A stretch of DNA of 64,000 nt. Source: Candidatus Oxydemutatoraceae bacterium. GTDB lineage: Bacteria; Pseudomonadota; Gammaproteobacteria; Poriferisulfidales; Oxydemutatoraceae. The notes beneath the pieces are model-generated. The model had not been told where the DNA came from. It ran no database searches and was given only the letters and a program-made list of their open reading frames with translations. This document shows positions 58,187 to 59,345 of this stretch, one piece after another. The stretch lies in NCBI GenBank assembly GCA_965226235.1, contig OZ245335.1, positions 1,580,427 to 1,644,426 on the forward strand, written 5' to 3'. How positions within the stretch are numbered: the stretch's first letter is position 1; the number at the start of each line of letters is the position of its first letter. The position numbers were made by a program, and so were the translations under genes.

Positions 58187-58293
58187 AGGCGATTTCATAG
58201 AAACCTCGCACGCGGAAGCCGATGTGTTGCATCAACATGTCGGCTTCCTTTTTACATCAGACCATCTGTCCCATTTGTTTCTGAACTCATACA
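58187..58293 (-). mobile_element. IS481 left-end fragment (extended-variant left end with hairpin), abutting the B-copy wrbA segment
   Basis: Reverse complement TGTATGAGTTCAGAAACAAATGGGACAGATGGTCTGATGTAAAAAGGAAGCCGACATGTTGATGCAACACATCGGCTTCC… collinear with 27868-27990. Confidence 0.65.
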
Positions 58294-58406
58294 CCGGGTA
58301 GGCGTCAAGAGAAGATGGAGCCTTTCTCAACCGGGGGCTGGTCGCGAGCGCGTGTGGATGTATTATTCAGGGAGATGCCCCAGAACCTGCCTGGTACCAC
58401 CTGCAA

Positions 58407-59004
58407 TATCTCCGCTACCGATACTGATCCTGTATTACACGCGTTATGGCGCAGTCGGGCAAATGGCGCGCGCGGTTGCACGGGGCGTCGAAAGCGTTGC
58501 CGATACCGAGGCCAGGTTGCGCGTCGCGCCAGCGATCACCACGCCGGGCACGGATAGCGCCGTGTCCGCCGATACCGCGCCCGAAGCGACGCTCGACGAT
58601 CTCGATCGGTGCGCTGGGTTGCTGCTCGGCAGCCCCCCACCCGTTTCGGCAACATGGCCGCTCCACTCAAGCATTTCCTGGACCAAACCGGCGGGCAATG
58701 GATGAGCGGTACGTTCGTCGGCAAGCCGGCCGGTGTCTTCACTTCCTCGGCCAGCGCACACGGCGGACAGGAAACCACCTTGATCACGATGATGATGCCT
58801 CTGCTGCACCACGGCATGCTGATCTACGGCATTCCCTTCAGCGAGTCACAACTCATCACCACGCGCAGCGGCGGCACGCCTTACGGCGCGAGCCACGTCG
58901 CAGGCAAGGACAGTACACTGCCGCTTACCCAGGACGAAACAGCGTTGTGCCGTGCGCTGGGGCGCCGCTACGCTGAAGTCGCCCACCGACGCGCAGCGGA
59001 CTAA
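58407..59004 (+). pseudogene. wrbA: wrbA second copy, inactivated (ATG->ATA start loss and +2 frameshift in a poly-C tract)
   Basis: Corresponding codons read …PPAISPLPIL… versus …[10 protein letters not shown]… in copy A. GCAGCCCCCCACCCG (6 C) versus GCAGCCCCACCCG (4 C) shifts the frame after LLLGSP. Confidence 0.65.
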
Positions 59005-59345
59005 GGGAGCCCCCTGGCGCGGGGAAGAAACCTGCGCCCGGCTGGCGGTGCACACCGGCAGCCATGCCGAACATCCCTCGGGCGCGTGATCGCGGTAGCG
59101 CAGGCTCGCGCGCACACCTCCTCCAGGTTCTGGCACACCCGCGCAACACGGGATCAGTATCAGGCGAGCGTGGGGCGGCTTTGCAACAACGCTCGGCGGA
59201 CACCCTCACCAACAAAATCCCGGGTTGTCCCATAGGTGGTAAACTCCTACACCCGGTTGCATTGCACTATGACGGCAACAATAATCCGCAGGGGAATGGT
59301 TCCTTGCGGGACGGTTTTCTGCACGTGACAGGAGGAATCTGAAAC

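Follow-up and report, generated by a model that had tools for sequence, protein, structure and literature searches.

In Bordetella pertussis, IS481-flanked inversions arise by homologous recombination between inverted copies of the element (PMC4888882). Members of the IS481 family have TGT...ACA ends and generate target duplications of 2–15 bp, mostly 6 (PMC10045372). The window analyzed here, which is the whole stretch of 64,000 nucleotides, contains two copies, A and B, of a 1.4-kb block that includes wrbA. We estimate the probability at roughly three in four that copy B is a fixed scar left by the insertion of an IS481-family element and an inversion, a reading drawn from the comparison of the two copies with each other and with related genomes. 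The parts of the block are the following:

15988–16858, minus strand: wrbA segment of copy A, in the orientation that outgroups point to as ancestral (alignment with B).
58294–59165 (homology from 58293), plus strand: inverted wrbA segment of copy B, reverse complement of A 15988–16858.
58406–59004, plus strand: wrbA pseudogene of copy B, with start ATA and a 2-bp insertion near 58647.
59252–59799, plus strand: segment common to A (16853–17358) and B and running in the same direction in both (alignment).

All sequences quoted by the initial annotation were found in the window, and the flip of the wrbA segment that it had reported between A and B is borne out by reverse-complement alignment, in which 859 of 873 positions are identical (98.4%), the differences being 12 mismatches and a single indel of 2 bp. 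The part of the block that carries the coiled-coil gene (A 16852–17358) matches B 59251–59799 in direct orientation, the main difference being 42 bp extra of a 21-nt repeat in B. In the latter copy, this part holds a coiled-coil/membrane gene (59346–59660) and is followed by fmdB-aspS-nudB-yebC-ruvC. The 21-nt tandem repeat of the coiled-coil/membrane gene encodes heptads FDNRLEQ (window 59368–59470 vs. 16969–17067), with about five units in B, and two plus a duplicated EQGQRDL unit in A; family matches of the protein are weak Tropomyosin only.

The wrbA gene of copy A (16149–16745, minus strand) is intact and its product is full length, scoring 188 bits against NF002999 (cutoff 141) and 168 bits against TIGR01755. 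In copy B, the start codon has changed from ATG to ATA, a +2 frameshift is present, and all seven substitutions relative to A (7/7) change an amino acid; a −35-like box reads TTGTCG in A and TGGTCG in B. Exact-protein look-ups returned no record for the A-copy WrbA, the A-copy coiled-coil protein, the transposase described below, the truncated B WrbA, or P0004, probably because gene callers had placed the starts elsewhere. Purifying selection on the A-copy wrbA was also considered, by comparison with the A locus of a second assembly (L085), and was rejected because the whole wrbA/coiled-coil block, and not just the coding sequence, is identical between assemblies.

The closest genomes that we found are a Chromatiales metagenome-assembled genome (MAG; L002) and a Candidatus Oxydemutatoraceae MAG (L004), whose WrbA proteins are 75% and 72% identical, respectively. 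In both of them, wrbA is divergent from fmdB-aspS-nudB-yebC, with a gap of 20–35 bp, and the relative orientation of wrbA and fmdB-aspS is kept in more distant relatives. Because the outgroup wrbA is divergent from fmdB-aspS, A keeps the ancestral orientation and B is inverted. Copy B, with fmdB, aspS, nudB, yebC, and ruvC following it, is the native aspS-ruvC locus, yet the rearranged copy, and copy A is a decayed partial duplicate of that locus, which retains the pre-insertion arrangement. The genes located downstream of wrbA in L002 and L004 have no homologs in the window, so that the far original breakpoint cannot be placed. The coiled-coil gene is absent between wrbA and fmdB in both outgroups.

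Both loci recur in an independent metagenome assembly (ERZ25074053), copy B as L001 (99.7% identical) and copy A as L085, and their arrangements, their junctions, their orientation, and the disabling mutations of B are as in the window. The flanks of copy A are themselves altered: its left junction is a derived fusion, at a GCCTG microhomology, with a truncated paralogous gene, the fourth of a tandem family, and its right flank carries ruvA/ruvB fragments with internal deletions, which are 97% identical to the intact ruvAB found after B in L001. Since both outer junctions of A are derived and A sits in an IS-rich mosaic, one may propose the converse, namely that A is rearranged and B ancestral, or that the arrangement was created in assembly, by confusion of repeats that are 98% identical. 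Yet the A-type orientation occurs in the outgroups, the target site is uninterrupted in A, and the mutations specific to each copy are found again, at both loci, in the independent assembly, which together leave this proposal with hardly any credit.

The tandem family on the left of copy A consists of four paralogous ORFs of ∼1 kb each (12396–15988), which share the motif FIHVPKTGG, the fourth being truncated at 15988; the one tested alone (14727–15761) has no Pfam or NCBIfam match. On the right, the fragments of ruvA (C-terminal domain) and ruvB are found at 17350–17816, between copy A and the adjacent insertion sequence, and within the ruvB fragment the N-terminus meets the 3′ end at a GCGCGCGGGCGCCAGG repeat.

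This adjacent insertion sequence served as the reference for the IS481-type ends discussed below:

17853–18853, plus strand: reference IS481-family copy with a 337-aa transposase and TGTATG...CATACA termini.

A single 337-aa ORF (17852–18865) spans the reference element, with no programmed frameshift. The best profile for the transposase is that of the IS481 family (NF033577; 182 bits, E-value 1.5e-53), at a score under the curated cutoff of 224, IS3 following at 93 bits, and its Pfam domains are rve, rve_3, and HTH_32. The ends, TGTATGAG...CATACA, which form imperfect terminal inverted repeats, are found in the window copies and in L085–L087. This copy, the sole complete one of the family in the window, lacks (at 17853–17900) a 5′ hairpin leader of ∼101 nt, which is kept at 27867–27985, at 58188–58293, and in a distant relative (L086, 1368–1500); the deletion falls between ACAWATGGGA repeats.

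At the two breakpoints of copy B, we distinguish the following features:

57607–58187, plus strand: 3′ fragment of an IS1634-family element (NCBIfam NF033559, 100 bits, profile positions 365–482 of 483).
58188–58293, minus strand: IS481-family left-end remnant in reverse orientation, 90% identical to 27867–27972, with its outer terminus at 58293.
58294–58298, no strand: inverted copy of the target duplication, CCGGG, adjoining the left terminus.
59166–59224, plus strand: 59 nt unique to B, non-IS-like, ending in the palindrome CCCGGG (59219–59224).
59225–59251, plus strand: solo right terminal inverted repeat of the IS481 family, 27 nt, TTGTCCCATAGGTGGTAAACTCCTACA, with its outer terminus at 59251.
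59252–59256, no strand: direct copy of the target duplication, CCCGG, adjoining the right terminus.

On the left, the junction reads ...CTGAACTCATACA|CCGGGTAGGCG. The initial annotation had bounded the segment here with an IS481 left terminus, and this holds, as 58269–58293 matches, in reverse complement, the left end of the complete copy (17853–17877) at 25 of 25 positions, the whole remnant showing the 90% identity given above to another left end. It is composed of a 28-nt left terminal repeat (58266–58293) and of the 5′ leader with a 16-bp hairpin (58214–58248), a leader and hairpin also present at the left end of the degenerate IS copy at 27867–27972. The IS1634-family fragment, whose ORF (57607–58089) covers only the C-terminal ∼118 aa of the transposase, adjoins the IS481-type remnant and truncates it at 58187/58188 to a 106-nt stub, and the sequence of this junction is the same in L001. 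From a TGTAGTGCC motif common to the complete IS1634-family copy, we infer that the IS1634-family element ends at about 58187.

On the right, the stretch present in B and absent from A measures 86 nt (59166–59251) and not 75 bp as first described, and only its last 27 nt are IS-like. These match 22 of the 27 positions (5 mismatches) of a right-end consensus built from four window copies, at 18853, 37028 (reverse complement), 52592, and 7101 (reverse complement). When both strands of the window were scanned with up to 8 mismatches allowed, the four known right ends and 59225–59251 were recovered, and no others, and 30 shuffles yielded zero matches at 5 mismatches or fewer, all of which upholds the earlier suggestion that this right-end-like sequence is related to IS481. 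The right ends found in L085, L086, L087, and L089 vary comparably, at the same outer positions; in L089, a second relative, the left end is cut by the contig start. No IS-interior similarity was detected at 59140–59224, either by DNA local alignment against the four right ends and two left leaders or by three-frame translation. The 59 nt at 59166–59224 most likely represent original DNA downstream of wrbA, the outgroup noncoding DNA at that position being too diverged to identify them. The palindrome that closes them just inside the 27-mer creates direct CCCGG on both sides of the repeat (59219–59223 and 59252–59256), an occurrence with a chance of ∼1%.

The uninterrupted junction of copy A reads CGCCTA-CCCGG-TTGCATT, with one CCCGG only (16853–16857), whereas B has CCGGG-TAGGCG after the left terminus and CCCGG-TTGCATT after the right one. 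CCCGG is a 5-bp target duplication, both outer junctions of one insertion into an A-type site being preserved, with the halves of the single duplication separated onto the two breakpoints of B in inverted orientation. The terminus is better placed at ...TACA|CCCGG, in agreement with the TGT...ACA ends of the IS481 family, so that the "imperfect inverted repeat" previously noted at the flanks of B amounts to the 5-bp target duplication plus terminal IS bases: It is indeed present at both edges, but it is accounted for by the duplication and the IS ends and not by recombining sites. As for the length of the duplication, the complete relative L086, whose transposase is 55% identical and which carries the same hairpin in its leader and the same right end, has ATGGG on either side, which indicates that 5 bp is the length proper to this subgroup; this figure rests on the A/B comparison and one relative, as no IS of the window keeps both its original flanks, a search around the window IS copies having found matching flanks in none.

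Some observations count against an IS scar. At L001 1725–1735 (window 59247–59258), ACACCTACGGTT is found where the window has ACACCCGGTT, and the right junction of L001 is accordingly CCTACGG and not CCCGG, which breaks up the right-hand copy of the duplication in that assembly; the 2-bp insertion is genuine or stems from a long-read error at the CCGG motif. Furthermore, the 27-mer is 5/27 off consensus, whereas the left terminus matches another copy at 25/25, and the CCCGG(G) at 59219–59224 makes a third occurrence of the motif, on the inner side of the 27-mer.

Comparison of the two copies suggests the following course for the IS scar that we favor. An IS481-family element entered the intergenic sequence CGCCTA-CCCGG-TTGCATT upstream of wrbA, duplicating CCCGG. 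An inversion, the outcome of which is visible in B and the mechanism of which is conjectural, then moved wrbA, together with the left end of the IS, away from its right end. In B, the IS side of each terminus lies to its left, and each terminus still adjoins one CCCGG copy, the two copies being oppositely oriented; the IS remnants at the two breakpoints are mutually inverted, the left one on the minus strand and the right one on the plus strand. The resulting hybrid copies would next have eroded, the left one being cut to its 106-nt stub by the IS1634-family element, and the right one being reduced to the bare 27-nt terminal repeat. Lastly, the B wrbA decayed, by loss of its start codon and the +2 frameshift, an intact wrbA persisting in A. 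The proposal of an IS481-end-mediated inversion or deletion, made in the initial annotation, is thus retained for the IS-borne origin, in view of the termini, the duplication, and the pre-insertion site in A, and finds no support as regards deletion as the mechanism.

How the inversion took place is a matter on which we hold more tentative views. Homologous recombination with a second, oppositely oriented IS copy downstream of wrbA, as in B. pertussis, is the route that we prefer, although we would give it slightly less than even odds. The IS at the A locus (17853–18853), when compared with L085 2470–3466, is a mosaic between assemblies, with 0 differences over 17946–18262 and many after 18263, and its right flank is wholly different after 18851, where L085 has glycosyltransferase genes. 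The mosaic and the changed flank imply that IS–IS recombination occurs in this lineage, between strains, and this counts for the two-copy route. On the other hand, no left terminus adjoins 59224 and no right terminus is found far left, so the route needs an extra deletion that removed exactly the stretch between the missing terminus and the inner side of the 27-nt repeat. On the left, the IS1634-family fragment has taken the place of the far side of the IS copy, and the reciprocal junction that would discriminate between the inversion routes was thereby destroyed.

In another route, one IS and one illegitimate inversion (non-homologous or at microhomology) would suffice, with breakpoints inside the right repeat and ∼930 bp away, downstream of wrbA. 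It involves the fewest events, dispensing with a second IS copy and with any later deletion on the right, it explains why IS homology ends at the inner edge of the 27-mer and why the outer junctions are intact with CCCGG, and microhomology-type junctions are common in the region. We nevertheless consider it rather unlikely, as there is no mechanism that would place a break so exactly on the repeat's inner edge, and the reciprocal junction, which would carry the rest of the IS, was destroyed by the IS1634-family fragment.

In models of intramolecular replicative transposition, the inversion product has one terminus of each kind at the new junctions, together with inverted target copies. Under such a model, an IS located downstream of wrbA would have attacked CCCGG on the same molecule, and a single step would have inverted the interval, copied the IS, and produced the inverted CCCGG pair, the right copy being later deleted to 27 nt. 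The topology of B fits this product, yet it calls for the same deletion of the right copy, and the present sequence makes the outcome indistinguishable from that of the recombination route. Moreover, elements of the IS3/IS481 type are considered to move by copy-out-paste-in through circles, which yields no adjacent inversions, and we regard the replicative route as improbable.

The bare 27-nt repeat, with its TGT start, its ACA end, and its direct CCCGG flanks, could also be viewed as the product of an undescribed reaction of the IS481-family transposase, and not of later decay. The inner edge of the terminal repeat may have been used as a pseudo-end, or a one-ended intramolecular strand transfer may have inverted the adjacent DNA and left a solo repeat behind. 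We give very little weight to such a transposase product; it is only in that case that the locus would open a new question.

Remains of mobile elements abound elsewhere in the window, which is a dense IS graveyard (10488–12332, 38781–39437, 56323–56544, 9922–10184, 37028–37251, and 51768–52592). They include one complete transposase of the IS1634 family, fragments of the IS3 family, and seven or more pieces of the IS481 family. GC content is 0.45–0.53 over 38–56 kb versus 0.60–0.62 in the aspS-ruvC block. Two inverted repeats of 472 nt (7270–7741 and 9167–9638), 97% complementary, bracket a 449-aa ORF (7760–9109) that has no Pfam or NCBIfam match, and an IS481-type right-end fragment (7101–7271) adjoins the left arm; the repeats and the ORF may constitute an uncharacterized mobile element with long terminal repeats. 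An Rfam search of the whole window returned zero RNA families.

The flanking repeats of B had also raised the possibility of a live, invertible wrbA switch, in which imperfect inverted repeats of 7–12 bp (ACCGGGT...ACCCGGT) would let the wrbA segment flip back and forth. The repeats do occur at both edges, and flipping at them would restore the A-type right junction. They are, however, fully explained by the target duplication and the IS termini, 7 bp is too short for homologous recombination, and the B wrbA is a pseudogene. No invertase or transposase gene is adjacent, the 106-nt and 27-nt IS stubs both being devoid of transposase, and a single orientation is seen in both assemblies (the window and L001). 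The ORFs between 56.4 and 60.3 kb correspond to a phosphorylase-family gene, the IS1634-family fragment, the wrbA pseudogene, the coiled-coil gene, and fmdB, with no site-specific recombinase gene among them. Metagenome scans for un-inverted or intermediate alleles with the common right flank CCCGGTTGCATTGCACTATGAC gave 0 matches, and scans with the left terminus TGTATGAGTTCAGAAACAWATGGGA likewise gave 0 matches. A live switch is therefore not supported, the likelihood of a reversible one being minimal, and the evidence points to a fixed scar, with nothing at the wrbA locus that seems able to invert today.

For annotation purposes, the wrbA of the native locus is to be read as a pseudogene within an IS scar, the functional wrbA residing in a decayed duplicate 42 kb away, in a 2.1-Mb genome that elements of the IS481, IS1634, and IS3 families are reshuffling. 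The window also offers a clean worked example, as one can read in it the site before insertion, the duplicated target, and the two IS ends together. The locus is an ordinary genome scar and an instance of a well-known kind of event, brought about by an IS481-family element that is itself undescribed.

Like the Hin/Gin and FimB/FimE-type switches, the locus has a short segment with inverted repeats at its ends, comprising a gene and its upstream region; unlike them, it has no recombinase gene, its cargo is a pseudogene, its repeats are leftovers of transposition, and it is seen in a single orientation. The element shares with the IS481 family (ISfinder; PMC10045372) a single DDE (rve) ORF, TGT...ACA ends, imperfect repeats of ∼27 nt, and a target duplication that is short, and it has the family's length of ∼1.0–1.1 kb, but it is an undescribed gammaproteobacterial member with a ∼100-nt 5′ leader and a 16-bp hairpin, lost in one copy. 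Relative to IS481 itself, it is distantly related, with its best profile below the curated cutoff, and generates a duplication of 5 bp instead of 6 bp. The closest parallel to the rearrangement is provided by the IS481 inversions of B. pertussis (PMC4888882), which likewise have an inverted IS481-family element at both breakpoints, are fixed in a lineage, and are accompanied by gene decay. In the present case, by contrast, the segment spans just ∼1 kb, the elements are reduced to stubs of 106 and 27 nt, and one can still make out both halves of a single target duplication.
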